Virus record (IMG/VR): IMGVR_UViG_3300045988_178329
Location: 1 to 62,705 of that record
Direction: 5' to 3' (one strand)
Source: a virus
Length of the DNA: 62,705 bases
Part shown: positions 28,844 to 43,415 of the stretch, piece after piece
Numbering within the stretch: position 1 is the stretch's first letter
How the letters are laid out: the number at the start of each line of letters is the position of its first letter
Program-made: the position numbers and the translations under genes
The notes under the pieces: generated by a model
Database searches by the model: none
What the model saw: only the letters and a program-made list of their open reading frames with translations
What the model was told of the DNA's origin: nothing

Positions 28844-28853
28844 CAATAACAAT

Positions 28854-30164: not shown

Positions 30165-30598
30165 AGGAAAACCCATTGGTAGAGATGTTCGACAGGCCTG
30201 CCGAGTGGAAGCTGGACAGGAAGAGGTACCCATGGCTATCCGACAAGGAGGTTGGGTTCCTCGAATCCATGCCGTTCGACTATGGGAACATAATGGCTGC
30301 CGTCAGTTACTTCCTCACCAAGGAACAGGTGGCTGAGAGGCTACTGACTACGGAGGAGGAGTTGGACAAGTATTGTCAGACATTGTGGAATAGGGACTTT
30401 AATAGCGTGTATACAGTGCTAATGAAAAAAGCCAAAGAAACCGGTATTGACACCTTCAAGTGGTTTGCCAATAAGGGAAATGCCACTGCCCTCTCCATAA
30501 TGGCTCACTCCATCATGAAGCTTGATAGGGAGGACAATGACAAGTCGCTGAAGGTTACCATTGTCAATGACCTTCCAGACATGGGTAATGGGAAATGA
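30131..30598 (+). CDS. hypothetical protein (155 aa)
   Basis: ORF. Confidence 0.45.
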   Translation: MVDEKEGDGEMKENPLVEMFDRPAEWKLDRKRYPWLSDKEVGFLESMPFDYGNIMAAVSYFLTKEQVAERLLTTEEELDKYCQTLWNRDFNSVYTVLMKKAKETGIDTFKWFANKGNATALSIMAHSIMKLDREDNDKSLKVTIVNDLPDMGNGK

Positions 30599-31272
30599 TC
30601 CTCCAGGACTTGCGCAAGAAGGACGCGTTCCTCTCTTCCGTCGATGAAGAGCAAAGGGACGCCATGGAACTCCTCTATGGCGAGAGTGGGAAGATGATTA
30701 ACAAGCAATCGTTCTCCCAGGCCATAATGGGATCGGAGGCGTTTGCCAAGAGTTCACCACTGATAAGGCCAAAGGTATCCGTACTCAGAAAGCCACTGTC
30801 GCTTGATGAGGATTCGGACAGCAGGGTTGACCTATTTCAGACCGACGGACATTACTACGTAACCTATAACAACGAGTTCAGCTACGAATATCTCTGCAAC
30901 CCGGAAAAGGTGAAGGAGATGCCGTTTGTGGTATCTGGGGACATATTCACTACGAATTCAAGGGTTCCCAATAGGTATCGCGACTACTACCACCTGATGG
31001 CAATGGGGAAACTGATACCGATGCTTGGCACCGTGCTTGAGTTCTCAAACATCTCGAAGGACCTGTTCTTCATGGCTAGGAGAAATCCGATGGTAAGGTT
31101 TCCGTTCTGTTTCGACTTCGTTCGCTATGAGGAGGAAGTTGGTCAGACGCACTTCGTTACCAGAGACCTCTATGGAAAGCAGATAGACTTCGAGAAGGCA
31201 CGGAGCAGCAATCCGGCATACATGTATAGGATCAAGCATGGTCTTGACCCGGTAACCAAGGAGAAGATGTGA
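30595..31272 (+). CDS. hypothetical protein (225 aa)
   Basis: ORF. Confidence 0.5.
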   Translation: MILQDLRKKDAFLSSVDEEQRDAMELLYGESGKMINKQSFSQAIMGSEAFAKSSPLIRPKVSVLRKPLSLDEDSDSRVDLFQTDGHYYVTYNNEFSYEYLCNPEKVKEMPFVVSGDIFTTNSRVPNRYRDYYHLMAMGKLIPMLGTVLEFSNISKDLFFMARRNPMVRFPFCFDFVRYEEEVGQTHFVTRDLYGKQIDFEKARSSNPAYMYRIKHGLDPVTKEKM

Positions 31273-31273
31273 T

Positions 31274-32923
31274 ATGGAATTGACAAAGTACCTAGACACG
31301 ATTGCGTTGTCCTGCCTGGGTTTGCAGAAGGCACCCACCCCACTTGAGCTAGAGAAGGCGGTGTTCACGAACGATTTGGAGGGTGTCCTCCACTATAGGC
31401 TTGCAGAAGGCCGTGCATGGTATTCCGCAGATGACGACGAGATACTTGCCTTCTACAACTATTCGGAGAGGGTGGAGTACAATACCGAACCATATAGGTA
31501 CAAGAACAAGCGTTCGTTCTTCTGGGCACGTTCATCACTCGAGGACGAGATGAAGAGGACGCACAGTGGCTTTGCCCGGGATATTGTCGATACAGACGTT
31601 GCACTCCTTGGGCTTCCTAGGATTAAGGTTGGCGTAAAGAGGAAGCCAGATAGCGACCTTATCGACAGGAAGTACCCAACGCTTGACGGGAAGAAGCCAC
31701 AGGAAGCACTTGATGACATAATGGAATACAATGACCTTCCAAGAATGGTTCAGGAAGAGCAGGAACCACTTACCCTGGTAGACGGTTGGGGGGCGTTCAA
31801 GATTACATGGGGAGAGGAAGCTGACGTGCCTCTAGTCCACTACTATGGCGGAGAGAGGGTTAGGATACACTCCAGGGGAAGCTCCGTATTCGGTATGACA
31901 TTCCTTGACTGGTATTCAGATGCACAGGGGAAGAGATACCTCATAGCCGAGACTAGGCTAATGAAGGACGGAAGGGGAATGATACGCTATAACTGCTTTA
32001 GGGACATCGGAAACGGGACCTTGGCTCCGCTTAGCAGGGAAGAGGCTGCGTTCTTCACCAAGGCGCAGGACCTGGATGACCTGCCGTGCCTATTTGCCGT
32101 TCCTACCTCGTTCTATGCGGACACCCAGAATGGACTTCCGGGAAGAAGCATCTTCAATGGCAAGTACAGTGTCTTTGATGACATAGACCAGGCGTTCTCC
32201 CAATGTGCAAATGCCATTAGGCGTTCCACCCCGGTAGAGAAGTTCGACCTCGACTATTGCGAAAGGGACAAGGATGGCATTGCAAGGATGCCTAAGCTCT
32301 TCGAAAGGAGGTACATTGGAATCCGTGGAATGAAGAACGCCTATGGTGAGAAGTCTGGGGACGATCCGGTAACCGTATCCCAGCCAAGGCTAGACATAGA
32401 AATGTATGTCCGTGCAATAGAACTCAATATGAGGAAGGCAATTAACGGACATTTGTCCCCTACTACCATAGGGCTTGATACCGAGAGGAAGGACAATGCG
32501 GACGCCCAGAGGGAATCCGAGAAGATAACAATCTTCACCATGAAGCATCTTGCAGGTAGGGAAAAGAGGATCCTGGAAAGACTAGCGAACCAACTCCTCA
32601 TCGCCTATGAATACATAACTGCCAAGAACCACGTAATCACCTGCGATGACTATGGTGTCAGTGTCGAGTATGATGAGTTCGGCAACCAGAGCTTCGAATC
32701 CAAGATAACCACACTTGCGACAGTACTTGCAAATGATGGCATATCACCTTCAATGTATGTCTCCAAGGTATATGGAGATTCCATATCAGAGGCAGACAGG
32801 AAGGAGGAAATCAAGTGGCTGGAATCCAAGCACACGCTCGAAACCCCCACCGTGCAAGGCGATAGTAGGGGGAAGGAAGGAAACCTCGACGGACTGCTTG
32901 ATGAAATCGGGGACGGTGAATGA
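31274..32923 (+). CDS. putative portal protein
   Basis: 549 aa, no Walker motifs, immediately upstream of the Mu F/SPP1 gp7-like minor head gene, which is the classic gene order. Confidence 0.4.
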   Translation: MELTKYLDTIALSCLGLQKAPTPLELEKAVFTNDLEGVLHYRLAEGRAWYSADDDEILAFYNYSERVEYNTEPYRYKNKRSFFWARSSLEDEMKRTHSGFARDIVDTDVALLGLPRIKVGVKRKPDSDLIDRKYPTLDGKKPQEALDDIMEYNDLPRMVQEEQEPLTLVDGWGAFKITWGEEADVPLVHYYGGERVRIHSRGSSVFGMTFLDWYSDAQGKRYLIAETRLMKDGRGMIRYNCFRDIGNGTLAPLSREEAAFFTKAQDLDDLPCLFAVPTSFYADTQNGLPGRSIFNGKYSVFDDIDQAFSQCANAIRRSTPVEKFDLDYCERDKDGIARMPKLFERRYIGIRGMKNAYGEKSGDDPVTVSQPRLDIEMYVRAIELNMRKAINGHLSPTTIGLDTERKDNADAQRESEKITIFTMKHLAGREKRILERLANQLLIAYEYITAKNHVITCDDYGVSVEYDEFGNQSFESKITTLATVLANDGISPSMYVSKVYGDSISEADRKEEIKWLESKHTLETPTVQGDSRGKEGNLDGLLDEIGDGE

Positions 32924-33669
32924 ATAGGGACGTAGCTAGGGGAACCAAGGGGACGCTGCTCGCACTGGGCACGTCCCTTTTCTCGGTAGGGACGATCCAA
33001 CATGCAAGGAAGAGCGTCTATGCTTACCTAACCTCCACCGTGCAATGGGCGGATTCCATTGGGCTGCATGGGGTACTGGAAGCTGCCATATCGGTGGCTA
33101 GGACCTATGTAGGGAGGAAGTTGGAGTTCGAGCCAACCTCATTCATGCAGATGGCGTTCCCTAGAATCGTCAAGGCGTTCAACCGTGCAAATAGGCGTAG
33201 GTGGGTTAGGACTAGGAAACTGGACGTAGCCAATACGCTGCGACTTGGGCTTGGTGCCGATAGGGTATTCTTCCTTGTATCGAGCCACCAGAACCCACAA
33301 AAGGCACATGCCCCGTTCCAGGGAAGGATCCTCGTCAACAGCCATTGGAGGTCGCTTGGGGAGGGTTACCGTGCAAGGGTCGGATCGTATGTTAGGAACA
33401 GGAAGGTAATGTCTGTGCAAAGGGCAATGCGTGAACCGTATTACCTGTTCGTCAGACCAAACTGCATGCACTACCTGATTCCACTTGACACAGAAGAAGT
33501 GCTCAGTTCTTCCCCTACTGCCGTTGCAAGGAGGCACCGTGCAACCGAGAGAAGGGTTCGTAGGCCATATACGGACAAGCAACTGTATAGGCAGCGTAGG
33601 GCACTCTACCTCCTAACCCTTGGGTTACTAGAAAAGAAACTTGGGAGAAGTGGGATAAAGGCAAAATGA
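32920..33669 (+). CDS. phage minor head (head morphogenesis) protein, Mu F/SPP1 gp7 family
   Basis: C-terminal ...FQGRILVNSHW...YLFVRPNCMHYLIPL matches the F-like hPNCRC box. Five copies of ACCGTGCAA lie inside this gene. Confidence 0.55.
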   Translation: MNRDVARGTKGTLLALGTSLFSVGTIQHARKSVYAYLTSTVQWADSIGLHGVLEAAISVARTYVGRKLEFEPTSFMQMAFPRIVKAFNRANRRRWVRTRKLDVANTLRLGLGADRVFFLVSSHQNPQKAHAPFQGRILVNSHWRSLGEGYRARVGSYVRNRKVMSVQRAMREPYYLFVRPNCMHYLIPLDTEEVLSSSPTAVARRHRATERRVRRPYTDKQLYRQRRALYLLTLGLLEKKLGRSGIKAK

Positions 33670-33712
33670 AAAAAAGGGTTTGGGATTCAGATCCTAAGCC
33701 CTTTTCCTTTGC
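33668..33712. terminator. bidirectional terminator between convergent modules
   Basis: AAAAAGGGTTTGGG...CCTAAGCCCTTTT hairpin overlapping both stop codons. Confidence 0.5.
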
Positions 33713-34017
33713 GATGAAATCCTCTTTGCCTCCTCTTCGGTTTCCACGAATCGCCCCTTTACATAGTAGTACTTCATACATGTATCCCTGTCTGGGTAGC
33801 CACCGTATTTGTCTGGGCTATCATCTATGAAGCACTCGAACCACTTTGGGGTTTCCCCATCGTAGCCCTCGTACATATGCCCGTAGGCTTCCAGAAACGC
33901 CTCTATGGCCTCTTTTGCAATGTCGATGGATGGAAGTAGCCTCCACCTCCCAATTTGCTCTCCATAGGCCTCAGAATACCTTACAAGGACTGTTGCATCG
34001 TATAGGTATCTATCCAT
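33694..34017 (-). CDS. hypothetical protein (107 aa)
   Basis: ORF on the minus strand. Confidence 0.45.
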   Translation of the reverse strand: MDRYLYDATVLVRYSEAYGEQIGRWRLLPSIDIAKEAIEAFLEAYGHMYEGYDGETPKWFECFIDDSPDKYGGYPDRDTCMKYYYVKGRFVETEEEAKRISSQRKRA

Positions 34018-34198
34018 TGTTTCGCTTTGCCCTCCTTCCCTCGCATATGAAGTCTATCTTTCCCCTCTTGGTGTCGATTACCCTTACATCCCAATTGATG
34101 AGCCTCAGAAGTTTCTTGGCCTTATGGATTGCTGCAATCCTTGTATGGAATATTTCCGTAGGTATTTCAAGCCCTTGGTTAATGATTAGTGAGTACAT
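34010..34198 (-). CDS. hypothetical protein (62 aa)
   Basis: ORF. Confidence 0.35.
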   Translation of the reverse strand: MYSLIINQGLEIPTEIFHTRIAAIHKAKKLLRLINWDVRVIDTKRGKIDFICEGRRAKRNNG

Positions 34199-34203
34199 TT
34201 TCT

Positions 34204-34467
34204 TTACTTAACCTCTCTTACTATCTTTTCGAGAATGATGTTGCCTGTCCTTGTTACATGGTAGGAGAATACGTAAGTCCTACCCTCTTGGATCACATAG
34301 CCAAGTGCAGCATCTGTCTTTGTCTTGGCATTGCTTTCATACCCAGTGGAACTCTCTATTACCGCTGCATAGCGTGGGTTTCCGTAATAGGAGTTGTTTA
34401 GCCTTGTGAGTTCCAAGACCTTGAATGTTCCGTTCATCTTGTTTTTTCCTCCGAACCTTGCTCCCAC
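34204..34467 (-). CDS. hypothetical protein (87 aa)
   Basis: ORF; its sigma70 promoter lies at 34483-34511. Confidence 0.45.
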   Translation of the reverse strand: MGARFGGKNKMNGTFKVLELTRLNNSYYGNPRYAAVIESSTGYESNAKTKTDAALGYVIQEGRTYVFSYHVTRTGNIILEKIVREVK

Positions 34468-34482
34468 TTTGGAAGCATAACC

Positions 34483-34511
34483 ATCTTAAGGGTATTCCAG
34501 AATATTGTCAA
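34483..34511 (-). promoter_or_regulatory. sigma70-like promoter TTGACA-N17-TAAGAT
   Basis: Read on the minus strand; preceded by an AT-rich UP-like tract and a CACCGTGCAA motif at 34565-34574. Confidence 0.55.
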
Positions 34512-34584
34512 GTGTTTTTTAAAAATTTTATTAAAGGTATTAGAAGTAATCGGAGAAACTGTACCACCGTGCAAAACCCTAGCA

Positions 34585-34612
34585 GCAAAAAAAGGGGAGT
34601 GTGTTTCCCCAC
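34585..34612 (-). terminator. rho-independent terminator
   Basis: GGGG-aaacacac-CCCC followed by TTTTTTT on the minus strand. Confidence 0.55.
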
Positions 34613-34615
34613 CCC

Positions 34616-34861
34616 CTAGAGTTCCTCTTCGTAAACCCTATCGATGAACTCCCCTTCTTCTGAACGTTCCTCGATTACGATTTCGGAGTTCGGAAACGGC
34701 TTGCTGCTTTCAAGTTCATCAATTCTGGAATCGACAAAGGCTAGGGCTTCCCTTTCGCTAGGGAAGGAACCAAGCGACATTTCATTGCCGTTTGGTGTCC
34801 CATCTTCCTCGTAGCCTAGTATTACAACCTCGTAAATCATTAGCATACCTCCCATAGCCAT
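34616..34861 (-). CDS. hypothetical acidic protein (81 aa)
   Basis: ORF, Glu/Asp-rich. Confidence 0.45.
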   Translation of the reverse strand: MAMGGMLMIYEVVILGYEEDGTPNGNEMSLGSFPSEREALAFVDSRIDELESSKPFPNSEIVIEERSEEGEFIDRVYEEEL

Positions 34862-35397
34862 CCATCAATGAGGCGTTCCCTATTTGGGTTTAGCCAAACG
34901 ACTTCGCCACTGTACTTGGAATCCACTTCATTTGTGATCCTGAACTTCCCAAGGCTATCGCGTAACGCTCTTGTCATCTTGGCACATGTATCATGGGTTA
35001 GCGTTCCATTTTGGAATACTATGTGTTCGCTAAACTCCATGCCTTCCTCTTCGCTAAACACCTCTATATTACACCCTAGGGAACTTATCTGCCCTAGCGT
35101 AGTTCCCATGAATATTTCAGGGTGTTCCTTGTTGAATTCGTTGTAGTAACTATTCTTGCCAGAAAGCATACAACAATGGACACTCCAAGCACATACACCA
35201 TATGCGTAGAGAACATAACCGTTCGAGGTTTCCTTTATTCCCCCAAACTCATTGTCTACCCTGAAGAAGTGCCTAGCCTTTGGCTTGACATTCTTTAGGT
35301 AGTTATAGTCGCTGTTGTTTAAGGTGGCAAGGAGATATTCAAGAACCTCCCTGTCCTTAGATTTTGCCCTTAATTCGTAGTTGCAATCGTTTGCCAT
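34840..35397 (-). CDS. hypothetical protein (185 aa)
   Basis: ORF. Confidence 0.5.
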   Translation of the reverse strand: MANDCNYELRAKSKDREVLEYLLATLNNSDYNYLKNVKPKARHFFRVDNEFGGIKETSNGYVLYAYGVCAWSVHCCMLSGKNSYYNEFNKEHPEIFMGTTLGQISSLGCNIEVFSEEEGMEFSEHIVFQNGTLTHDTCAKMTRALRDSLGKFRITNEVDSKYSGEVVWLNPNRERLIDGWLWEVC

Positions 35398-35775
35398 TTA
35401 TCTATCCTCCTTGGATTTGATTTCTTCCCTTTCCTTGTCTAACCACTTCTTTAAGGCTTCCCCATCAAATTCGGAAACCATTTTCTTTAGGTTGCCTAGA
35501 TACCTACTTGATTCTGCTAAGTTGCAACCCTTTAGGTAGTGCATGAAGTAGTACTCCACTTGGCTACCGTATTGGTAACGGATAAGGTAGTAGCCACTTG
35601 TTAGGATGCCATTGTATTCAGCGACTAGGTGATCTTGAACCAATTCTTTTTTGATGTCCCTTCCAATATTCCAAGAAGAGTTGTCCCAATTCCTGAAGGT
35701 ACGTTCTAGAGTTTCGGTTGGTTGGGGTATTCCTTCATAGCCCCCAATCGCCTTTAGTTCGGTTTTGATGTGCAT
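35398..35775 (-). CDS. hypothetical protein (125 aa)
   Basis: ORF; promoter TTGACA-N17-TAAGAT at 35808-35836. Confidence 0.5.
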   Translation of the reverse strand: MHIKTELKAIGGYEGIPQPTETLERTFRNWDNSSWNIGRDIKKELVQDHLVAEYNGILTSGYYLIRYQYGSQVEYYFMHYLKGCNLAESSRYLGNLKKMVSEFDGEALKKWLDKEREEIKSKEDR

Positions 35776-35807
35776 GTTCTATGCTCCTTTTCTTCCCCTA
35801 TGGCAAT

Positions 35808-35836
35808 ATCTTAAGTCACTTTGAAATTTGTGTCAA
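35808..35836 (-). promoter_or_regulatory. sigma70-like promoter TTGACA-N17-TAAGAT
   Basis: Canonical spacing on the minus strand. Confidence 0.55.
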
Positions 35837-35889
35837 TAAAAATTTTAAAAAAAGTTTAAACGATATATATGTGTACGCAGAAATCCACC

Positions 35890-36040
35890 CACCGTGCAAT
35901 TAGGAAAGGGGCGCAGATGTCTCTCTTGTGTGGTTATATTTCTCTAAGGACTGCCTACGGTGGGGACAGCAAGGTCTAGTGAGTGGCATACCCATTTCTC
36001 CGATTCTATGGGTAGGGGAAGGATGACCACTTGCACGGTA
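35890..36040. repeat. Inverted-repeat-flanked intergenic unit: CACCGTGCAA, about 130 bp, then TTGCACGGTA
   Basis: 10-bp terminal inverted repeats. The unit sits between the terminator of 36083..36706 and the promoter of 35398..35775. Confidence 0.7.
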
Positions 36041-36043
36041 ACT

Positions 36044-36078
36044 CTTAAAAAGAGTAGGGGAGTTTTGCCCTCCCCCTT
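36044..36078 (-). terminator. rho-independent terminator
   Basis: GGGAG-ggcaaaa-CTCCC followed by a T-run on the minus strand. Confidence 0.5.
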
Positions 36079-36082
36079 TTCC

Positions 36083-36706
36083 CTAGTGGAACTTGAAATA
36101 AACCGACTGCCCTTTTCTTAATGTCCAGCAGGCTAGGCACTCTGGGCAACTCCCACCGCATGGAATGGCGGTCTCTGGGATTTTCGGATTCATCTCCGCT
36201 TTTTTAAAGAACACATAGGCAACGGGGAACTTGTAGGGGTTGTCCACCTTGAACGCCTTAGACCATGCAGAGAACACGATTCTTAAGTTGCTAGGTATCT
36301 TCCCACCGTTTGCAACGTAGCCGTTTACTATGTCAAACTTCTTTGTAAAGCATAGGAACCTAACGCCCTTGCACTTCCTTGCAACCTCTATCATGCCATC
36401 GAAATAGGAAGCGTCTACGATGTCCCCTACAGAATGCCATCTAAAGTACTTATAGGTAACTAGGGAGTTATTAAGGAACGAGGCTATTTCATCAAAGAAG
36501 CCCCTAGGATCTTCCTTGTAGAACAAGGCGTTTGACATGATGGAATTCTGAACGTTCTTGTAGGTGAAATTGCCCTTTTTGCCGTAGCACCCATGAGCAC
36601 ATGGGGCGTCAGCCCTACAGCTGCATTGTGGGGCGAGGTTTACGCTTGGGATTTGGAATCCCAGTTTTGAGTTTGTGGTTGAGATTTTGACTTGCATAAT
36701 TGCCAC
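36083..36706 (-). CDS. Cys-rich protein (two Cys clusters; putative metal or Fe-S binding)
   Basis: CSCRADAPCAHGCYGKKG and CGGSCPECLACW. Confidence 0.5.
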   Translation of the reverse strand: MAIMQVKISTTNSKLGFQIPSVNLAPQCSCRADAPCAHGCYGKKGNFTYKNVQNSIMSNALFYKEDPRGFFDEIASFLNNSLVTYKYFRWHSVGDIVDASYFDGMIEVARKCKGVRFLCFTKKFDIVNGYVANGGKIPSNLRIVFSAWSKAFKVDNPYKFPVAYVFFKKAEMNPKIPETAIPCGGSCPECLACWTLRKGQSVYFKFH

Positions 36707-36808
36707 TCCTTTTTGATGATTACATTCTAATGCATCCCATTATGGAAGTAAAGAGAAAAATAAAAATTTCCTAAATGAGTTTAGAAGTCATCGAATGTCT
36801 GAAACAAC

Positions 36809-36957
36809 CACCGTGCAATTTGATGATAGGGATGGAAAACGGATTTCAAAAAGTACACCAAACCTTCTGGAGAACTTTTGCTGCTGGGGCAAGAAAAGCG
36901 GATGCCGTTCCACCCCCAATTTTGGGGTATGGGGAAATCCGACCTTGGTTGCACGGA
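36809..36957. repeat. Inverted-repeat-flanked intergenic unit: CACCGTGCAA, about 130 bp, then TTGCACGGA
   Basis: Same architecture as 35890-36040. The overlapping short track ORFs 36775..37209, 36788..37018, 36795..37001 and 36878..37081 are considered spurious. Confidence 0.65.
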
Positions 36958-37149
36958 GCACTTCTTTTCGGTTTCCGAACCATTTCAGACAAAAGAGATA
37001 ACAACACAAGATATGCAAATGCCCCTAGAAATCGTTTCTGGGGCGTTCCTATGCGTTTCGTTTCCCTTTGTGGTAATTTAACGCTCTCTAAAGCCTTAAA
37101 AATGAAAAGCCCCCTTTTTCTAGAGGGCTTAGGGATCTCTTTCCCTTTC

Positions 37150-37641
37150 CTAGTTGGCTTTCTTGATTTCGGCTTCCACCTCCTCCCATTCGCTATCTAT
37201 GAAGTCTAGGGCTTCCTCTAGACCGTAATCGATTCTAGAAACCTCTTTACGGTTATTGTTTAGATAGTCGATGAAAGAATCATCGTTGATTGCCTCAAAC
37301 ACAATATCACTGGTTGACTTGGTTTCTATGTGGCCGTATCCGTTGAGCCTGAAATATTCATCGCTCATGTTTACGCTTCCATAGTAGCAGGCCATTAGGG
37401 CATCCCAATGGCTGCTGAAGGTGTTGTCTATTTCCTCATCGTTAAATTCGATGTAGCAATCGCCTGGGTAGTAGTTTCTTAGATAGTCGTTATAGGCATC
37501 TATGACGTCTTGGCTACTTGCTTCGCCTAGGGCGTCCTTTATGAGCGAACGCTCAAGGTTCTCTGAGGAATCGCTTGGGTAACGATTTTCGGCAATGTAT
37601 TCTGCCATTGCCTTGGGGTTTGTGAGTTTTGATAGGTTCAT
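37150..37641 (-). CDS. hypothetical highly acidic protein (163 aa)
   Basis: Asp/Glu-rich ORF; a promoter with A-tract motif lies upstream. Confidence 0.5.
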   Translation of the reverse strand: MNLSKLTNPKAMAEYIAENRYPSDSSENLERSLIKDALGEASSQDVIDAYNDYLRNYYPGDCYIEFNDEEIDNTFSSHWDALMACYYGSVNMSDEYFRLNGYGHIETKSTSDIVFEAINDDSFIDYLNNNRKEVSRIDYGLEEALDFIDSEWEEVEAEIKKAN

Positions 37642-37667
37642 ATTTGTGTCTCCTTTTCAGACAATAC

Positions 37668-37733
37668 CATTATAGAAAATGGGTAGGGTAAGTAAATAGA
37701 AAAGTTAAATTTTTAGGTTCATTTAAGGTTGGC
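37668..37733 (-). promoter_or_regulatory. Promoter region with A-tract motif AACCTTAAATGAACCTAAAAAT, TTTTCTATTTACTT box and TATAAT
   Basis: Minus-strand copy of the 1643 and 17967 element. Confidence 0.55.
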
Positions 37734-37745
37734 TGAAATTCATGG

Positions 37746-37895
37746 TGCCGTGCAATTATAGGGGGTCAAGGAAGCAATGGAAGGCAATGGCTTCGGATTC
37801 ATTTTCTGGCTCAAAAAGGTAGTAGGGATAACTAGGTGTATATTTTATACAGTCGGTTTTGGGGCACTTGGGGAGGGCTGACTTTTTGCACGGTA
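37746..37895. repeat. Inverted-repeat-flanked intergenic unit: GCCGTGCAA, about 130 bp, then TTGCACGGTA
   Basis: Same architecture as 35890-36040. Confidence 0.65.
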
Positions 37896-37902
37896 CGATG
37901 AT

Positions 37903-37934
37903 ACAAAAAAGGAAGGGTGTTTTCCCTTCCCTTT
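37903..37934 (-). terminator. rho-independent terminator
   Basis: GGAAGGG-aaaaca-CCCTTCC followed by TTTTTT on the minus strand. Confidence 0.65.
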
Positions 37935-37939
37935 CAGAC

Positions 37940-38278
37940 TTAATTATCGGTTTCTTCCAACACTTCTTCAATCGCCTTTTGGCAATCTTCCTTGTTAGCA
38001 TAGAAGCCTACAAATGGGTGATACCAGTAAGATCCGACTTCGGCAATTCTCTCTATTGCAAAGTCATCTTCATTTTCATCTTCTTCGGTTTCATAGACTG
38101 TGAAATCATATTCATCGGGTGTGGTGATTTCAACGTTGTTATAGGACTTGTATATCTTTGGATCAAGTTCATCGAATATGGAATCCAATGAATAGAATTC
38201 CCCTTCATAGACAACCTTGTTGTTGTTTCCATAGTCGGTGATTTTAATTGTTTTGCTCTTCATATTTTTTCCTTTCAT
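37940..38278 (-). CDS. hypothetical highly acidic protein (112 aa)
   Basis: ORF rich in Glu/Asp. Confidence 0.5.
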   Translation of the reverse strand: MKGKNMKSKTIKITDYGNNNKVVYEGEFYSLDSIFDELDPKIYKSYNNVEITTPDEYDFTVYETEEDENEDDFAIERIAEVGSYWYHPFVGFYANKEDCQKAIEEVLEETDN

Positions 38279-38332
38279 TGTATGGGAGCTACGGCTTTTG
38301 CATAGCCCCTAGAATTTGTTCGTAGGCAACGC

Positions 38333-38593
38333 CTACATATGTTTTAGGGTGAAACAGTAATCCTTCCAGAAATCTAGAAGGTTTAACTTGTTGTCATACT
38401 TTTCGATGATGTCAGAAATGTCTATTCTTTCATCAAAATGTTGTAGGAAGTAGAGGTATTCATCAAAGAAGTCATAGACTTCGTTTTCGTCAATACCGAA
38501 ACGATTAGAGTAATCGACAGTCATTATGGAATTGAGTGTAACATCTTCCCTAAGCTTGATTACTTGAGATGGCATGAGGTCTTGAATGTGCAT
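38333..38593 (-). CDS. hypothetical protein (86 aa)
   Basis: ORF; promoter TTGACA-N16-TAGAAT at 38622-38649. Confidence 0.45.
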   Translation of the reverse strand: MHIQDLMPSQVIKLREDVTLNSIMTVDYSNRFGIDENEVYDFFDEYLYFLQHFDERIDISDIIEKYDNKLNLLDFWKDYCFTLKHM

Positions 38594-38621
38594 ATTGTTC
38601 CCCCTTTCTTGGGATACACTA

Positions 38622-38649
38622 ATTCTACCATTAACGATATAGTTGTCAA
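38622..38649 (-). promoter_or_regulatory. sigma70-like promoter TTGACA-N16-TAGAAT
   Basis: Minus strand. Confidence 0.5.
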
Positions 38650-38712
38650 TAGGAAAATTAAAAAAAGTTTACAATGATTAGTTCTGAACGGACTTTTTCC
38701 GCGGAATAATGG

Positions 38713-38871
38713 CACCGTGCAACTCAATTGGTTGCCATGTGTGGATTTGGTTTTCTACAAGGTCAGAAGCCTTTCGGCTACCCTTTGCTTCCGTTTGCTT
38801 TTCGCCTACCATAGGCAGCGGTGGAAATGGTGGAGTGGAAGAATTCCCTACCCGATCGGACTTGCACGGTA
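38713..38871. repeat. Inverted-repeat-flanked intergenic unit: CACCGTGCAA, about 140 bp, then TTGCACGGTA
   Basis: Same architecture as 35890-36040. Confidence 0.65.
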
Positions 38872-38917
38872 GCCCCTAGGAAAAAAAGCGCCCTAGGTTT
38901 TTCTAGAGCGTCTTTCC

Positions 38918-39631
38918 CTAAAATGTAATGTTGCTTCTAAACAAGGCTATTACAGGTGTTTCCTCAAAGTTTTTTGTATCGGTACTAACTATGTTTGCAA
39001 CGTATTCGTTTTCGAATTCGCTACTTGGTCCAGAAACAATTCTTATGTACTTTCTACCTAGGTTCTTGGCAACCTTTATTAAATCTTCGAGTTTGCTAAC
39101 GGAAAAGAGCCTATCTATAGTTTGCTCATAGTTTTGGTGGAAGAAACTAAGCTCTACATCATCGAATTCAACATTGTCAAAATATACAACGTCTTTTTCG
39201 ATGGCTTCTAACAAAGAGAAAGAGGCGTATTGTATGCCGTTATGCTTTAGCAACAACAATGTTCTGTAATCACATTCGATCTGGAAATCAAATTCGTACT
39301 TTGGGAAGTTTTTCAACATTTCAGATAGTTTCTTGGTGTTTAGGTCAATTCTGAAATTCTTGCTTACATAGGCTCTGAAAACCTTATGCAAAGGTAGGCA
39401 ATACCTAGTTGAAAAGACATGTATGCAATTTTTGTCCTTTTCGCCTATAATGCTAATTTTACTTTTCATTTCTCCATTCATTTCGCAATTCTGGGAAAAG
39501 GCAACTAGGGTGGAAATGAATTCTTTGTGGGTGGTTAGCCCAAAGTCGGCGGAGGTTTCTTCGAAACCTTGTACCTTGTCAAAGGAAGGTGCTAAGCTTT
39601 CCTTGACTTGGTTAACTGTAAGTTTGTCCAT
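38918..39631 (-). CDS. hypothetical protein (237 aa)
   Basis: ORF with AAAGGAG ribosome-binding site; promoter TTGACA-N16-TAGAAT at 39675-39702. Confidence 0.55.
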   Translation of the reverse strand: MDKLTVNQVKESLAPSFDKVQGFEETSADFGLTTHKEFISTLVAFSQNCEMNGEMKSKISIIGEKDKNCIHVFSTRYCLPLHKVFRAYVSKNFRIDLNTKKLSEMLKNFPKYEFDFQIECDYRTLLLLKHNGIQYASFSLLEAIEKDVVYFDNVEFDDVELSFFHQNYEQTIDRLFSVSKLEDLIKVAKNLGRKYIRIVSGPSSEFENEYVANIVSTDTKNFEETPVIALFRSNITF

Positions 39632-39674
39632 TTGTTCTACTCCTTTAAATGGGTGTTCCTTTTGGAACGATATA

Positions 39675-39702
39675 ATTCTACCATTTCAGATATATGTGTC
39701 AA
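39675..39702 (-). promoter_or_regulatory. sigma70-like promoter TTGACA-N16-TAGAAT
   Basis: Minus strand. Confidence 0.5.
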
Positions 39703-39738
39703 TACTTTTTTAAAACAAAGATTACAATGTATAGTAGC

Positions 39739-39893
39739 CACCGTGCTATTTTTGAAATGGGGTAACGGAAACCCCAGATTTGCAAATGGTGGGAAAACCA
39801 CCTTTCAAAAAACAATAGTCAAAATATAAGCTTAGGAAAATGACACCCCAAATTGTCTAGGGTAGAAAAAAAAGGGGGGTACCTTGCACGGTG
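39739..39893. repeat. Inverted-repeat-flanked intergenic unit: CACCGTGCTA (degenerate), about 135 bp, then TTGCACGGTG
   Basis: Same architecture as 35890-36040. Confidence 0.6.
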
Positions 39894-40027
39894 GCGGATC
39901 CCTGAAATTCTGGAAGCTTTGAAAAATTTTTATAGGGATGTCTGAAACGAGGAAAACCCATAAAAACGGTTTCTAGGCGTTCCTAGGGCTTTTCAGTGTG
40001 GTTAATATAATTTTCCAAACAACAAAA

Positions 40028-40078
40028 GAAAACGCCCCTAGGGGCTTAAAAAAGAGCCGTTTTTTAATTCGGCTCTCT
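40028..40078 (-). terminator. tandem rho-independent terminators
   Basis: AGAGCCG-loop-CGGCTCT followed by TTTTTT, then the palindromic hairpin GCCCCTAGGGGC. Confidence 0.65.
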
Positions 40079-40088
40079 TCCTTAGTTT

Positions 40089-40508
40089 TTAATATCCTAA
40101 ATCTATTACATTTTGTAAAGTTAGGTAAATTATTAATTTAAGCATGAAATCCATTTTATCTTTATTCCATGTTTTCATTTCTTCATCGGTTGCTTCTAGA
40201 ATGTTTCCTAGAATTTCAATAGGCGATTCGGAGTAGTTGAGAATCTTAGGTTTTTTTCCTAGCCATTCTATGAAAGCATCGCTATAAGAGCCATTTTTTA
40301 GACTATATGGATTAAACGGATTAAATTTTACTTCTTCTTCAAATGTTCTATTTATTGCAAGTGCATAATCTCTAAAATCATTAGGGTTATATAATTCGGT
40401 TTTGTCTAGGTGGGTATGTTCCAAGATGAACTTTCTTAATTTTTGGATGGCTTTTGGTGAATTTGCTCTAATCATAATTTTTTCTCTTTCCAAGGGGGCT
40501 TTTTTCAA
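40089..40508 (-). CDS. paralog family C member (139 aa)
   Basis: N-terminus MIRANSPKAIQKLRKFILEH, paralogous to 40522..40896. Confidence 0.5.
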   Translation of the reverse strand: MKKAPLEREKIMIRANSPKAIQKLRKFILEHTHLDKTELYNPNDFRDYALAINRTFEEEVKFNPFNPYSLKNGSYSDAFIEWLGKKPKILNYSESPIEILGNILEATDEEMKTWNKDKMDFMLKLIIYLTLQNVIDLGY

Positions 40509-40521
40509 GCCCCCTATTTCT

Positions 40522-40896
40522 TTATTTAATCGCCTTTCTTACTCTTCTATAAATCATATATGATAATAGGCTTTCGGCTTGGGTTTCGCTAAACCTTGCT
40601 TTTTCTTCCTTGGTTTCTTCCAATATATCGCCTAGGGTTTCAACGGCTGAAACATTGTAATAATAGGAAGTGTCTATAATTGATGGCAACCATTGCAACC
40701 AACTAATGAACGCTTCTTGTTCATTTTGTCTTCTTTCAGATGGGGTGGAGTATACCTCTTTAACGAATTCATCATAGATGGCTTTCATACATTCGTTAGG
40801 GGTGGATGGGGTGAAGTCATAGCCATCAAAGTCGCATCCATCTAAGATGAACTTCTCTAAATTGGCTTGGGCTTTTTTTGAGTTTGTTCTAAGCAT
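40522..40896 (-). CDS. paralog family C member (124 aa)
   Basis: N-terminus MLRTNSKKAQANLEKFILDG; promoter TTGACA-N17-TAACAT at 40924-40952. Confidence 0.5.
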   Translation of the reverse strand: MLRTNSKKAQANLEKFILDGCDFDGYDFTPSTPNECMKAIYDEFVKEVYSTPSERRQNEQEAFISWLQWLPSIIDTSYYYNVSAVETLGDILEETKEEKARFSETQAESLLSYMIYRRVRKAIK

Positions 40897-40923
40897 GATT
40901 TTAACCTCCCTGCTTATGAGAAG

Positions 40924-40952
40924 ATGTTAAACCCATTTCTAAAAGTTGTCAA
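40924..40952 (-). promoter_or_regulatory. sigma70-like promoter TTGACA-N17-TAACAT
   Basis: Minus strand. Confidence 0.5.
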
Positions 40953-41013
40953 TACTTTTTTTAAAACTTTTTTAATACTCCTAGAAATCATCTACACTTT
41001 TTCAGACATCCTT

Positions 41014-41059
41014 TTGCACGGACTAGGGTTTTTGCACGGAGCTTACCTTGTTGCACGGC
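41014..41059. repeat. Three direct copies of TTGCACGG at 18-19-bp spacing
   Basis: TTGCACGGA at 41014 and 41032, TTGCACGGC at 41051. On the minus strand they sit between the terminator of 41104..41325 and the promoter of 40522..40896. Confidence 0.7.
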
Positions 41060-41071
41060 TTTTCTGGGTAA

Positions 41072-41103
41072 TGGAAAAAGAGGGGTTTGTTGTCCCTCCC
41101 TTT
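41072..41103 (-). terminator. rho-independent terminator
   Basis: GAGGG-acaacaaac-CCCTC followed by TTTTT on the minus strand. Confidence 0.5.
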
Positions 41104-41325
41104 TCAGATACCTTCCACACCGTCTAGACCGTCAAGGAACTCTTGGCAAATGGAAGCGGTATCGTCTAACCATTCTTGCCTTTGGCTTTGGGCTTCGGTT
41201 AGTTCGCTTCTTCCTTCATAGGGTTCAATGTCATTGCTAACTTGTTCAATGTGTGATTTGAGAGTGTCAACTATGTTGTAGACACTTCTCAACATTTTGA
41301 TGAAATAGGTTTTTGAGTAAGTCAT
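41104..41325 (-). CDS. hypothetical acidic protein (73 aa)
   Basis: ORF; the upstream region carries four phased AACCT(T)AAA repeats. Confidence 0.45.
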   Translation of the reverse strand: MTYSKTYFIKMLRSVYNIVDTLKSHIEQVSNDIEPYEGRSELTEAQSQRQEWLDDTASICQEFLDGLDGVEGI

Positions 41326-41382
41326 TTTGTGTTCTCCTTTGAACGTCTATATTATATAAAAGTCAATAGAAAAATAAAACAC

Positions 41383-41426
41383 CTTTTAGGTTGATTTAAG
41401 GTTCTTTAAGGTTCATTTTAGGTTGT
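41383..41426 (-). promoter_or_regulatory. Four phased A-tract repeats (AACCTAAAATG, AACCTTAAAG, AACCTTAAATC, AACCTAAAAGG; 10-11-bp period) upstream of a promoter
   Basis: Helically phased A-tracts of the UP-element or curved-DNA type. A CACCGTGCAA-family motif lies at 41440-41449. Confidence 0.55.
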
Positions 41427-41496
41427 CTGAAAAAGCTACTTGCACGGTAACGGATCCATTGAAAAACCCTAGGTTTCCCTAGGGCTTGGGTTTGGA

Positions 41497-41767
41497 TTAG
41501 AAATAACAAGCGTTTCTATATTCCTTCAACATTCTATATTTGTCCTTACCGCAATAGATATGTTGGTCTTTGTATTCTTCCTCTACCAAGCGAGTTTCGA
41601 AGCCATCGAAGAAGTTCATTACTTCCTCTTCATCAATGCCATATTGGTTCTTGTAGCCCCTTCCACCGATGAAATCATTGATGGTGATTTCAAGGTAGAG
41701 ATTCCAAAGTGCATCATTTGGTAAATCACCGATTGTGATTTTTGGGGGTGTTGTTTTCTTTTTCCAT
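41497..41767 (-). pseudogene. frameshifted gene: ATG with strong ribosome-binding site, 13 codons, stop, then continuation in the +1 frame across a C5A5 run
   Basis: On the minus strand: AAAGGGAG-N7-ATG GAA AAA GAA AAC AAC ACC CCC AAA AAT ... TGA. The adjacent frame reads ITIGDLPNDALWNLYLEITINDFIGGRGYKNQYGIDEEEVMNFFDGFETRLVEEEYKDQHIYCGKDKYRMLKEYRNACYF with no start codon of its own. Confidence 0.4.
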
Positions 41768-41814
41768 TTTGTTTTCTCCCTTTGAAACCCCTATTTTTAC
41801 CCCTATTTGATTTC

Positions 41815-42000
41815 TTACCTATCTAGCGACAATTCCACTTGGAACCATGATTTCGCTTCGCCTTTGGACTTAGCCTTAGCCCAAATCCACCTAATCCATT
41901 CGATATGGTTTCCTAGGGGCTTTTCATAGCCTATGGCTTTCTTAGCCCTTAGCAAGGTTTTTTGGTAAGCCTTGACTTGTTTGTTTGTTTCTAGTTTCAT
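41815..42000 (-). CDS. hypothetical basic protein (61 aa)
   Basis: ORF; promoter TTGACT-N16-TATCAA at 42014-42041. Confidence 0.4.
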   Translation of the reverse strand: MKLETNKQVKAYQKTLLRAKKAIGYEKPLGNHIEWIRWIWAKAKSKGEAKSWFQVELSLDR

Positions 42001-42055
42001 AACCCAAACTCCTTTGATAAGAAAAGTTTAAGGAAAGTCAATGATTTTGTAAACA

Positions 42056-42122
42056 TCTTTTAGGTTATTTTTAGGTTGATTTAAGGTTGGACAATTGCCA
42101 GAAACCCATACTTGCACGGTGG
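42056..42122 (-). promoter_or_regulatory. A-tract repeat block (AACCTTAAATCAACCTAAAAATAACCTAAAAG) plus CCACCGTGCAAG motif
   Basis: Same element family as 41383; lies downstream of the terminator at 42130-42160. Confidence 0.5.
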
Positions 42123-42129
42123 CCAGACA

Positions 42130-42160
42130 ATAAAAAATGGGAAGCGTTTTGCTTTCCCAT
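42130..42160 (-). terminator. rho-independent terminator
   Basis: GGGAAAGC-aaaac-GCTTCCC followed by ATTTTTT on the minus strand. Confidence 0.6.
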
Positions 42161-42170
42161 TTGCCTCGCT

Positions 42171-42365
42171 TCATTCGCCTCCTATTAGGCGTTTTGGGTT
42201 GCCTAGCGCCCTTTGAAGTAGTCTTACTTGTGATTCGTTCTCCAAGCGCCAAACAACCTTAGTATGAGATTTGTCAAGCCTTGTTTCAGACATTATCAAA
42301 TCGGCTAGGCATCTATGGGCATAACTCCCCATTTGGTAATTGTTTAAGATTGCGTTTACTTTCAT
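42171..42365 (-). CDS. hypothetical protein (64 aa)
   Basis: ORF with AAAGGAG ribosome-binding site. Confidence 0.4.
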   Translation of the reverse strand: MKVNAILNNYQMGSYAHRCLADLIMSETRLDKSHTKVVWRLENESQVRLLQRALGNPKRLIGGE

Positions 42366-42437
42366 TTTAATTTCTCCTTTGTTCCCCTACGATTATAAGC
42401 ATACACCTGCAAGGGCTCAAATCAACAAAGTGAGAAC

Positions 42438-42496
42438 CATTTTTAGGTTGTTTTAAGGTACAAAAAAATGCCCCATTGGGACATCTTCTTGCACGG
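42438..42496 (-). promoter_or_regulatory. A-tract motif ACCTTAAAACAACCTAAAAAT, terminator hairpin and CCGCCGTGCAAG motif
   Basis: Same element family; terminator ATGTCCC-a-ATGGGGCAT followed by TTTTTTT on the minus strand. Confidence 0.5.
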
Positions 42497-42508
42497 CGGT
42501 GGCCACCA

Positions 42509-42886
42509 CTAGTCCTTCTTGTAGATTTTCCTGAGTTCCTTCTTAACGAGCTTGTAGTCCCTCTTCGGAAGGTCTGAGGTAACGTAGTCTACCATTACCT
42601 CTTCTCCGTTGTAATGACCAACGAATCCGACAAAGGCTGGTTCCCTATCCACGATGTCGATGCAGACTATGATGACTTCCTTGCTCTCCTCGTTGTAGCT
42701 GAACATCACCTGCGAGACAAGTATCTCCTGCCACTTGGAAAGCTGGGATAGGTATCCGCTTGGGTTTGTCCTTGCCATCCTGTTGACCTTCTCCTCCGTA
42801 AAGGTAAGCCAGAGAACGCCATCCACACCTATCGCATTTGCTATCGGCCTATTCAATTTCCACAGTCTCAAATCCTCTATGTTCAT
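42509..42886 (-). CDS. hypothetical protein (125 aa), first gene of the minus-strand module
   Basis: ATG at 42886 with GGAGGAG ribosome-binding site; the longer track ORF extending to 42985 lacks a ribosome-binding site. Confidence 0.5.
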   Translation of the reverse strand: MNIEDLRLWKLNRPIANAIGVDGVLWLTFTEEKVNRMARTNPSGYLSQLSKWQEILVSQVMFSYNEESKEVIIVCIDIVDREPAFVGFVGHYNGEEVMVDYVTSDLPKRDYKLVKKELRKIYKKD

Positions 42887-42921
42887 GTGTCTCCTCCATA
42901 AGGAAATTATACACTTTCCTA

Positions 42922-43165
42922 TTGACTGTGTATACACCAACCTTCGACTTTTTGAAAAATGTGGTACTCTCGGGAGGATGGACATATCTATTTTAATATC
43001 TTTTATATATATCTATAAAAGATATGTAAAATATATATGTAAATGTCAACCTATTCTGTTATGGAAGAAATAAAAAACATTTTGAAAAAATAAAATGTAA
43101 AATAAAAAAGAATTAGGTTTTTTCCACCGTAGAAAAAGTCAATAGCAATTATATATGTAATATAT
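42922..43165. repeat. Copy 2 of the duplicated AT-rich regulatory or origin-like region (copy 1 at 29565..29790), bounded by inverted copies of AAAAAGTGGTACTCTCGG
   Basis: Blocks shared with copy 1, the palindrome GTGTATACAC at 42928-42937, and an inverted-repeat partner at 43176-43196. Confidence 0.6.
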
Positions 43166-43200
43166 AAAAACGCTTCCGAGAGTACCACTTTTTGAGATAA

Positions 43201-43226
43201 CGTAACAAAACGGCAAATTTGTTACG
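43201..43226. promoter_or_regulatory. Perfect 9-bp inverted repeat CGTAACAAA-N8-TTTGTTACG (operator-like) upstream of the late operon
   Basis: Palindrome lying in the divergent control region. Confidence 0.45.
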
Positions 43227-43415
43227 CTAACTCGGTTTTTGACCTATTTCTCCTGTGGTTAAATTTTTGCCTTTCCTTTCTATTTTTCTCGCACGGGTGC
43301 GTACGTGGCACACAAGAAAAGTTTCCAATTTTGTCTGACTTGCCTTAAAATATGATCGAAAGCCATTGGTCGCTAGAAAAAGGCCAAGATTAAACTCGTA
43401 TGGAGAGGGTAAGCC

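Follow-up and report, generated by a model that had tools for sequence, protein, structure and literature searches.

What does a phage gain from repeating one short DNA word throughout a single block of its genome and carrying it nowhere else? The question arises from IMG/VR virus record IMGVR_UViG_3300045988_178329 (positions 1 to 62,705; this whole stretch of 62,705 nucleotides is called the window below), a circularly assembled phage genome in which a preliminary description had reported an array of the 10-bp motif CACCGTGCAA. The exact motif occurs nine times against 0.05 expected, a count that none of 100 shuffled sequences reached, and it tops all 10-mers of the window by frequency, which bears out the claim that the array is not due to chance. 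Allowing up to one mismatch gives 21 matches (2.1 expected), 19 of them within 32848–42498, and the 8-mer CCGTGCAA occurs 22 times, always within 32410–42496, with a variant of it, CACCGTGCTA, at 39739. The window consensus is yACCGTGCAA, an asymmetric word of ~10 bp. Its core 6-mer, CCGTGC/GCACGG, is present 29 times, all within 31031–43895, and is absent from both strands of the other 49.6 kb, although ~8 copies are predicted there by an order-2 Markov model, so that the confinement described earlier proves sharper than had been claimed. Even partial core words are scarce outside the array (CGTG, 108 versus 163 expected; CCGTG, 14 versus 37; CGTGC, 12 versus 36), and avoidance therefore reaches partial core matches too. 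Such exclusion is in keeping with a site whose presence within transcription units carries a cost.

All 17 intergenic coordinates of the preliminary description are right, with those at 37746, 41014, 41051 and 42489 being 8/10 or 9/10 matches; its five coding coordinates were off by 1–11 bp (true starts 32848, 33036, 33181, 33367 and 33535), and the copy at 32408–32417 had been overlooked. What that description lacked was the conservation of the array throughout the phage family, the exclusion of the core from elsewhere, the two-armed polarity and the place of the coding copies as a conserved part of the array.

Conservation, polarity and placement of the array

A megablast search with the 30–45 kb region against 50,697 phage records gave no match, and by portal tblastn the relatives among deposited phage records have at most 26% identity. 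The relatives compared here are metagenomic: relative R (loci L001 and L002; ~91% nucleotide identity), L007 (portal identity 96%), L010 (71%), L011 (51%), L012, L014 and L015 (~46%), and L017–L022, which are contigs binned into metagenome-assembled genomes (33–38%). The core array is found in ~12 relatives, down to 33% portal identity and over GC contents of 35–57%, and is lacking only in the two most distant ones, L023 and L024. In the relatives, no copies occur in up to 10 kb upstream of the array, the array opens somewhere from ~400 bp ahead of the portal start codon to 1.1 kb past it, and 9–35 copies per genome are spread over the following 7–13 kb; summed over 13 loci, 2 core copies lie outside the arrays versus ~30 expected.

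Compared with R, the 8-mer is unaltered at 21 of 21 shared sites while adjacent bases differ. Across the family the core is invariant and the flanks go by lineage (yACCGTGCAA in the window, sGCCGTGCTC in L012, CACCGTGCTAt in L015, tCCGTGCaA in L022), the base before CCG being predominantly A in 9 of 14 sequences, with G preferred in L012 and L017 and T in L014 and L022. Copies inside genes carry the flank of their lineage as well, for example as a Q codon (CAA) versus an L codon (CTC), and some of them sit at homologous alignment columns of the portal and minor-head proteins across relatives. By these comparisons, the word is under strong purifying selection, with co-evolving flanks, over the whole GC range of these phages.

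The array has two arms. In the window, '+' copies extend from 31031 to 39741 and '−' copies from 36033 to 43890, and a single core-only '−' copy stands apart at 31198; the orientations alternate from 35.9 to 39.9 kb, as five convergent pairs 138–149 bp apart. The same polarity, '+' copies left of '−' copies, was recovered in 11 of 11 testable loci (p 1e-5 to 0.03). Within confirmed genes, copies are limited to those for p225, the portal and the minor head protein, and one more lies inside an unannotated + open reading frame (ORF) at 43416–44120. Copies in the portal operon span three reading frames (TVQ, xRA and PC) and are all '+' but one core-only copy; over six genomes, portal and minor-head copies run with transcription rather than against it by 54:8. 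The minor head gene is truly coding, because 32 of its 46 substitutions versus a relative fall at third codon positions.

In the leftward module of small genes that converges on this operon, by contrast with the operon's coding copies, all copies are intergenic, one to three per spacer, and their orientation is independent of gene strand. The earlier claim that copies stand between a terminator and the next promoter holds for every module copy: terminator-proximal copies lie 43–51 bp past the stop codon of the upstream gene and ~8–14 nt past the T-run, promoter-proximal copies have the next ATG 100–126 bp on, and in the short spacers at 34567, 41442 and 42114 a single copy has both distances. 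Pooled over 12 loci, 60 of 140 module copies lie 30–50 bp past a stop codon and 61 of 143 lie 100–140 bp before an ATG. In L017 and L021 the copy stands 9–14 nt past the terminator T-run and ~56–75 nt ahead of TTGACA, and in L022 32–43 nt ahead of TTGACA in one orientation and ~62 nt in the other. L018, with minimal spacers and weak -35 elements, has 5'-aGCACGGtaaa 25 ± 1 nt upstream of the -10 element CTTwTAtaat in 11 of 11 spacers, the site being centred near -44; as this distance is fixed while the intervening sequence varies, the spacing appears to be constrained.

The paired spacers raise the question of whether the ~150-bp units themselves are the functional elements, namely structured RNA genes, elements like miniature inverted-repeat transposable elements (MITEs) or integron attC sites. 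Five spacers do have CACCGTGCAA ... TTGCACGGTG ends at the pair distance given above, and such inverted ends can close a stem. Yet in other lineages the copies are convergent, divergent, direct or single, with pairs 34–160 bp apart, so the convergent ~140-bp pairs of the window are a local habit and not a rule. Spacer interiors are mutually unrelated and drift between relatives; their alignment shares the motif ends (8–10 bp) alone, with a gap-rich remainder and a mean column identity of 51%, and the MITE candidate was rejected. Over the whole window Rfam gave 0 matches at the gathering threshold and ARAGORN 0 tRNAs, and no '+'-strand promoters lie beside the units. Nine paired spacers, folded on both strands, formed branched structures with no consistent strand preference, fold z-scores running from -0.1 to -4.9 alike on both strands; the RNA gene and attC candidates were set aside on these grounds. 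Where attC sites carry the inverted core sites R'' (RYYYAAC) and R' (GTTRRRY), the units end in CACCGTGCAA / TTGCACGGTG, which do not fit GTTRRRY; where attC sites form a single bulged hairpin, the interiors here are branched and weakly stable, and many spacers have single or direct copies. Nor do the cassettes resemble the promoterless one-way cassettes of integrons, having their own sigma70-type promoters before most module genes, and the proteins scanned included neither an integrase nor a tyrosine recombinase. When viral contigs were searched for ACCGTGCAA-N(125-145)-TTGCACGGT, only this phage lineage and two isolated pairs consistent with chance came up. We find these readings of the units hardly credible, and a role at the RNA level is unlikely altogether since motif orientation in the module ignores gene strand.

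A candidate protein site at the cassette joints

A core that stays fixed while its flanks drift, an orientation that does not follow gene strand and the lack of an RNA signal support the earlier option of a protein recognition site acting at the DNA level, and we infer that the motif is probably bound by a conserved DNA-binding protein encoded by the phage. A host factor is unlikely because the core is invariant over such deep divergence and GC range. The option of an operator or another transcriptional role, raised alongside it, is strengthened by the regular position of the copies at terminator/promoter junctions in 12 loci and by the 25 ± 1 nt to the -10 element in L018. The reading that we favour, tentatively, is an asymmetric site of a conserved phage DNA-binding protein which acts on transcription as an insulator or operator, loosely in the manner of the stoperators of phage L5. 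The array combines co-oriented copies in the rightward portal/minor-head operon with the one to three copies per spacer of the converging module, and a protein bound at a terminator/promoter joint could be an insulator or a direction-dependent roadblock. Such a roadblock would stop read-through between cassettes and would keep antisense polymerases, fired from the strong leftward promoters, from entering the portal operon; in some compact lineages the site may rather work near the promoter, as an operator or activator box. Since each cassette has this word on both sides, the word also serves now and then as a crossover point for cassette gain or loss, which would be a by-product. A site of this kind would account for the invariance of the core, its exclusion, its anchoring at the portal gene, the co-oriented and spacer placement and the geometry of L018, and in part for the polarity of the two arms.

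Several observations weigh against this reading. '+' copies stand among leftward genes in the module's left half, so that one polar-roadblock rule cannot cover all sites, and the exclusion of co-oriented copies from other rightward genes needs the extra assumption that the site is costly wherever DNA is transcribed. Motif and -35 are a variable distance apart in the window (36–73 nt), which disfavours a phase-dependent activator here. L5 stoperators are spread over the whole genome, whereas the present array takes up ~20% of it. Finally, the evidence for a binder extends to two candidates, p155 and p225, named for their co-occurrence with the array: where the sequence of an array-bearing locus extends far enough, they are encoded directly upstream of the portal gene, except in L022, and they are missing from the two array-less relatives, in which TerL abuts the portal gene. 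This co-occurrence may, however, be mere phylogeny, as the array-less loci are also the most distant. The model of p155 has a pLDDT (predicted local distance difference test) of 59, and its Foldseek matches to helix-turn-helix (HTH) domains are not significant; that of p225, with a pLDDT of 41, is unusable. For p155, a profile of 11 orthologues against PDB, an 11-member alignment against PHROGs and a Pfam scan of six orthologues plus the window protein gave no match, and p225 has no PHROG or PDB match and an empty Pfam scan. p155 may resemble a small terminase subunit, an impression that the PDB, Pfam and PHROGs searches, without a match, did not bear out.

The same pair of proteins could have a different use. 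It is possible, if unlikely, that the array is a new type of cis-acting 'domain marker', a polar 6-bp word purged from the genome save for one two-armed zone of 7–13 kb at the portal operon, which p155 and p225 would read to steer a DNA-tracking process in place of ordinary transcription control. That process could be the initiation of a packaging series, end handling or a switch of replication mode, and the array would then be the phage counterpart of the polar motifs KOPS, matS and Ter.

Crossovers, nicks, replication and Chi

Comparison of the window with R and L007 shows how the module changes. Two of six indels have their junctions exactly in direct motif copies: a 1,017-bp spacer-plus-gene unit (window 38723–39748) is absent from R, and a 1.3-kb segment of R (18940–20266) and L007 is missing from the window at 41032. 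Spacer R4 equals the W4 left flank, the motif and the W5 interior. In the other four differences, deletion or replacement is exact to the gene, and the junctions coincide with the borders of genes, ribosome-binding sites or terminators. Crossover at the motif does occur, but most turnover proceeds via repeated promoter/terminator modules, as in cassettes of the promoter-early stem-loop (PeSL) type. The 'recombination core' option of the preliminary description finds support as an occasional event only. Taken as a core or linker for cassette exchange between related phages, perhaps with a dedicated recombinase, the motif would fit the two crossovers and the chimaeric spacer, the copies exactly on cassette borders, a module gene content that varies between close relatives, the PDDEXK exonuclease and Sak annealing protein encoded by the phage, a 21-bp tandem duplication at one indel-junction motif of L007 and the near-identical repetition of promoter modules in L017 and L022. 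It would leave unexplained the 8–12 conserved coding copies in the portal and minor-head genes, the polarity of the arms and the exclusion elsewhere; moreover, four of the six indels do without the motif, no integrase or recombinase was found among ~50 proteins scanned, and 10 bp is short for annealing-based recombination. We judge this role decidedly unlikely.

Two of these features deserve description in their own right. The duplication in L007 (18118–18160), GTATAGTAGCCACCGTGC(AA/..), falls exactly at the motif copy that is the indel junction, and may be a recombination scar. In L017 (13532–16600) and L022 (6864–14224), the promoter modules of several cassettes are near-identical over ~60–70 bp, e.g. 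...gtttgtttaaatacTTGACAacgctatctatatatggTATAAT, which suggests duplication or gene conversion of regulatory cassettes.

Localized nicks offer another precedent for short multicopy words. Terminase-linked HNH enzymes are strand-specific nickases with 3–7 bp sites, for example CG^GT (AC^CG), YG^GTY, CSG^GT and HSSG^GT (PMC3592412), and phage tf has 14 nicks in TACT/RTGMC, all in the same strand, of which 11 fall in the left half, near-variants being rare (PMC3517423). The sites of the window might be recognized and nicked by the HNH endonuclease of the phage, itself terminase-linked, to leave single-strand interruptions of the localized kind known from T5, phiKMV and tf. Such nicks would fall in the bottom strand along the left arm and in the top strand along the right arm, and could serve packaging, concatemer processing or nick-primed replication. 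The window does encode an HNH protein, in the block just upstream of TerL, with homologues in the TerL gene block of L014 and L015; it matches PDB 4h9d, which we take to be a terminase-associated nicking HNH enzyme, the database entry reading only 'HNH endonuclease'. CGGT is present in the motif complement TTGCACGGTG and CGG in the universal core GCACGG, the tf consensus resembles yACC GTGC, and an enzyme site under self-avoidance would show such a purge of a short core from both strands. Against this, ACCG is not universal, A being the majority base before CCG in those 9 of 14 sequences only, and the 4-mer ACCG/CGGT is not avoided outside the array. Known nick systems are single-strand, while the sites here are on both strands; nicks in the portal operon would hit the template strand; nicking does not explain why copies stand precisely at terminator/promoter joints, nor the -10 spacing of L018; and the presence of the HNH gene could be checked in a minority of array-bearing relatives. 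On balance we regard nicking as quite unlikely. A palindrome in L014 (13589–13598), CCGTGCACGG, has both core orientations overlapping and is the sole such site among the loci examined; were a nick to fall at GCACG|G in the core, the palindrome would yield a cos-like 8-nt staggered cut.

The replication proteins suggest a further use. Primase-polymerases with a helix-bundle domain start at specific template words, TTTGGTTA or GTG (PMC8718748), the phage encodes an 864-aa enzyme of this kind joined to a D5-type helicase, and the core contains GTG. The sites might then be initiation sites or iterons of the NrS-1-like primase-polymerase/D5 helicase, priming outward from both arms, or polar fork barriers forming a terminus-like trap. 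Arms of opposite polarity would suit ssiA/ssiB-type origins or Ter traps, the coding copies are co-oriented with transcription as polar barriers would be, and two related AT-rich regions flank the array. Nonetheless, ~30 sites over 7–13 kb are far above any known origin or phage terminus, with '+' and '−' copies interleaved at the centre, a strict fork trap would fail to replicate part of the DNA there, and GTG is merely a trinucleotide. The array also lies more than 20 kb from the replication genes of the window, a distance not kept in relatives, and the primase-polymerase could be checked in L014 alone. A replication element is improbable on this evidence.

The orientation of the arms, '+' left and '−' right, is also the active one for an exonuclease entering at the array centre, so that the copies might be Chi-like sites that attenuate a host nuclease of the AddAB/RecBCD type and shield ends arising mid-array, such as headful ends. 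The Chi word differs between genera, and the core is identical in phages of 35–57% GC, which argues against host specificity. The strict exclusion would be unexplained, since Chi elsewhere would be harmless, and the circular assembly leaves the genome ends unplaced. Clustered, orientation-biased arrays do have phage precedent, in the terminal Chi clusters of LLS, MD8 and P1, where Chi is the commonest octamer, but phages with their own Rec module are mostly without Chi (PMC12315714), and this phage carries one. Chi-like sites are very improbable here.

Genome setting and comparison with known systems

The features discussed are collected in Table 1. Besides the proteins already mentioned, we identified two Cro/CI-type HTH proteins, which the preliminary description had suggested testing as binders and which nothing connects with the motif, an SSB, a helicase, a dUTPase, two DNA methylases and the anti-Thoeris proteins Tad2 and Tad3; the primase-polymerase and its D5 helicase are a single fusion. 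The window ends (1–51 and 62655–62705) share 51 identical bp, which fall in a gene of ~69-bp repeats encoding ...LDTSNVTDM...; the contig is broken within this gene, and contigs of two relatives break at the same place. Proximity of contig ends to motif copies (3 of 5 within ~65 bp) was not significant, and the position of the array centre opposite the replication genes on the circular map was dismissed as a coincidence, as it fails in L014. Between TerL and the portal operon, 17753–29800 holds ~12 kb of methylase, Tad2, Tad3 and small unassigned genes, a gap of just 2–5 kb in L012, L014, L015 and L019; it looks like a second variable accessory region, and it places the Tad2 and Tad3 genes elsewhere in the genome than the array.

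The AT-rich regions flanking the array (29572–29798 and 42929–43190) are paralogous (77% identity over 137 bp) and contain TATATA tracts and the palindrome TTCCACGGTGGAA; the second also has a 21-bp inverted repeat, AAAATGTGGTACTCTCGGGAG / CTTCCGAGAGTACCACTTTTT, with arms 196 bp apart. They are probably the regulated promoters of the portal operon and of the + gene block from 43416, and the equivalent region is the contig break point in several relatives. The palindrome is merely parS-like, and a parS reading did not fit.

Most module spacers contain a strong sigma70-type promoter (e.g. TTGACA-16-TAGAAT) and an intrinsic terminator; a sigma-54 promoter and known Firmicute regulator boxes did not fit. 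Phased repeats AACCTAAAA / AACCTTAAA with an 11-bp period lie just upstream of the -35 of several promoters and occur in L010 too; an UP-like element is one possible role, and a site for another regulator that acts independently of CCGTGC is a second. The word TGTCTGAAA/TTTCAGACA has seven exact copies, all in the leftward module (36796, 36983, 37655, 39939, 41000, 41424 and 42284), some of which adjoin CCGTGC copies and some of which are in 5' untranslated regions just before the ribosome-binding site. The preliminary description had placed TTTCAGACA frequently 3–5 bp from the motif; this is true of three of the seven, at 36796, 41000 and 41424, with offsets of 4–7 bp. Spacers of L015 and L022 are enriched in related CAGAC/CCAGA words. 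The spacers at 36959–37106 and 39894–40040 have ~150 bp of extra non-coding DNA with a common word, GGCGTTCCTA, and a terminator-like hairpin, and could represent what is left of lost cassettes, or else small transcripts running leftward.

Table 1. Motif copies, genes and other repeats of the window, in window coordinates
Feature	Position	Strand	Remarks
Core-only copy CCGTGC	31031–31036	+	in p225 gene; left edge of array
Core-only copy (GCACGG on + strand)	31198–31203	-	in p225 gene
Core-only copy	31411–31416	+	in portal gene; alignment column common to L010
Core-only copy	32084–32089	+	in portal gene; alignment column common to L010
Copy GTCCGTGCAA	32408–32417	+	in portal gene
Exact copy	32848–32857	+	3' end of portal gene
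Exact copy	33036–33045	+	minor head protein gene; reading frame TVQ
Copy AACCGTGCAA	33181–33190	+	minor head gene (FNRAN); homologous position in L010, L011
Copy TACCGTGCAA	33367–33376	+	minor head gene
Exact copy	33535–33544	+	minor head gene
Exact copy	34565–34574	+	single-copy spacer; stop codon 43 bp before, next ATG 100 bp on
Exact copy, pair 1 left member	35890–35899	+	promoter-proximal, ATG 117 bp on
Copy, pair 1 right member	36031–36040	-	terminator-proximal, 44 bp past stop
Exact copy, pair 2	36809–36818	+	promoter-proximal
Copy CTCCGTGCAA, pair 2	36949–36958	-	
Copy TGCCGTGCAA, pair 3	37746–37755	+	promoter-proximal
Copy, pair 3	37886–37895	-	terminator-proximal
Exact copy, pair 4	38713–38722	+	left junction of 1,017-bp cassette missing in R
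Copy, pair 4	38862–38871	-	terminator-proximal
Variant CACCGTGCTA, pair 5	39739–39748	+	right junction of 1,017-bp cassette missing in R
Exact copy, pair 5	39884–39893	-	
Three tandem copies (41014, 41032, 41051), 18–19 bp apart	41014–41060	-	41032 is junction of 1.3-kb segment of R and L007
Copy, single-copy spacer	41440–41449	-	49 bp past stop, 117 bp before ATG
Exact copy, single-copy spacer	42112–42121	-	51 bp past stop, 114 bp before ATG
Copy CGCCGTGCAA	42489–42498	-	12 bp past stop codon of first module gene
Core-only copy	43291–43296	-	spacer ahead of unannotated + ORF 43416–44120
Core-only copy	43890–43895	-	inside unannotated + ORF 43416–44120; right edge of array
HNH endonuclease	14395–15216	+	matches PDB 4h9d; gene block just upstream of TerL
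TerL	16199–17752		
Portal operon	29820–33669	+	p114, p155, p225, portal, minor head; ends at bidirectional terminator ~33.68 kb
p155	30131–30598	+	conserved helical protein, weakly HTH-like; co-occurs with array; candidate binder
p225	30595–31272	+	conserved protein, no assigned fold; co-occurs with array
Portal gene	31274–32923	+	
Minor head protein gene	32920–33669	+	
Leftward module	33694–42985	-	~18 small genes, no function assigned; converges on portal operon
Phased repeats AACCTAAAA / AACCTTAAA	37711–37730, 41384–41437, 42058–42090, 42441–42460	-	
Phased repeats AACCTAAAA / AACCTTAAA	17967–17986, 22841–22860	+	just upstream of + ORFs outside array

A word whose conservation reaches deeper than that of most neighbouring proteins points to an essential cis-acting function that is invisible to annotation pipelines, in a family of widespread siphophages that has no cultured member and probably infects Bacillota. 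Should the insulator or roadblock role be true, the array would show how a dense, strongly expressed accessory block can be run head-on against a late structural operon; should the word instead signal nicking, packaging or replication, the 'localized nicks' of phages would gain a definite geometry as well as an enzyme to consider. Whichever holds, the core word, its exclusion elsewhere and the two arms make a signature for metagenomic searches, and the motif is a defined DNA bait for identifying the binder. A full-text literature search for the word found nothing relevant, nor a comparable confined two-armed array.

Among known systems, the stoperators of L5 and other Cluster A phages, which Brown et al. 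reportedly described in 1997 as 13-bp asymmetric repressor sites, are alike in being asymmetric sites of about one helical turn, in tens of copies per genome, placed in short intergenic spaces and sometimes in genes; they are thought to act on elongating RNA polymerase. The orientation of stoperators is tied to the direction of transcription and flips between genome arms, which here fits the coding copies (54:8) and not the module copies. Unlike stoperators, the present sites are not dispersed, lying in 31.0–43.9 kb with none elsewhere, the remainder of the genome being purged of them; they show no evident immunity function, and the core is conserved across very divergent phages. The PeSLs of T4 are mobile regulatory cassettes, to which the boundary sequences of lambdoid phages are comparable. 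These share with the array a hyperplastic module of small genes, a conserved promoter and stem-loop terminator, repeated regulatory modules and indels at such borders between relatives, and the module is PeSL-like in its promoter and terminator in most spacers, its near-identical L017 and L022 modules and its gene-precise replacements. The array differs in having an additional, far more conserved word of 6–10 bp between terminator and promoter, which also stands, with polarity, inside neighbouring essential genes; to our knowledge, an extra word of the CCGTGC type has not been described for PeSLs.

The polar replication terminators Tus/Ter and RTP/Ter, and the origin iterons used by the P4 alpha primase-helicase, resemble the array in their asymmetric sites in two opposed groups, in being tolerated in genes only when co-oriented with transcription and in the presence of a D5-type primase-helicase. 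The site described here is much shorter and far more numerous, its orientations are interleaved at the centre, and no Tus- or RTP-like protein was found. The nick sites of tf/LUZ24, T5 and phiKMV and the sites of HNH nickases are likewise short, asymmetric multicopy consensuses, unevenly spread and rare elsewhere, and TACT/RTGMC and CG^GT resemble the motif, with an HNH gene in the window (PMC3517423, PMC3592412). The known ones, however, are single-strand and not tied to terminator/promoter joints, while the ACCG flank is not universal here. The Chi arrays of LLS, MD8 and P1 have clustered, orientation-biased copies too (PMC12315714), whereas the present core is invariant across hosts of differing GC, is excluded outside the cluster, forms two opposed arms and coexists with the phage's own recombination module. 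The array is thus nearest to the repeat systems of phages, namely L5 stoperators, nick consensuses, Chi clusters and PeSLs, and differs from each of them in at least one defining respect.

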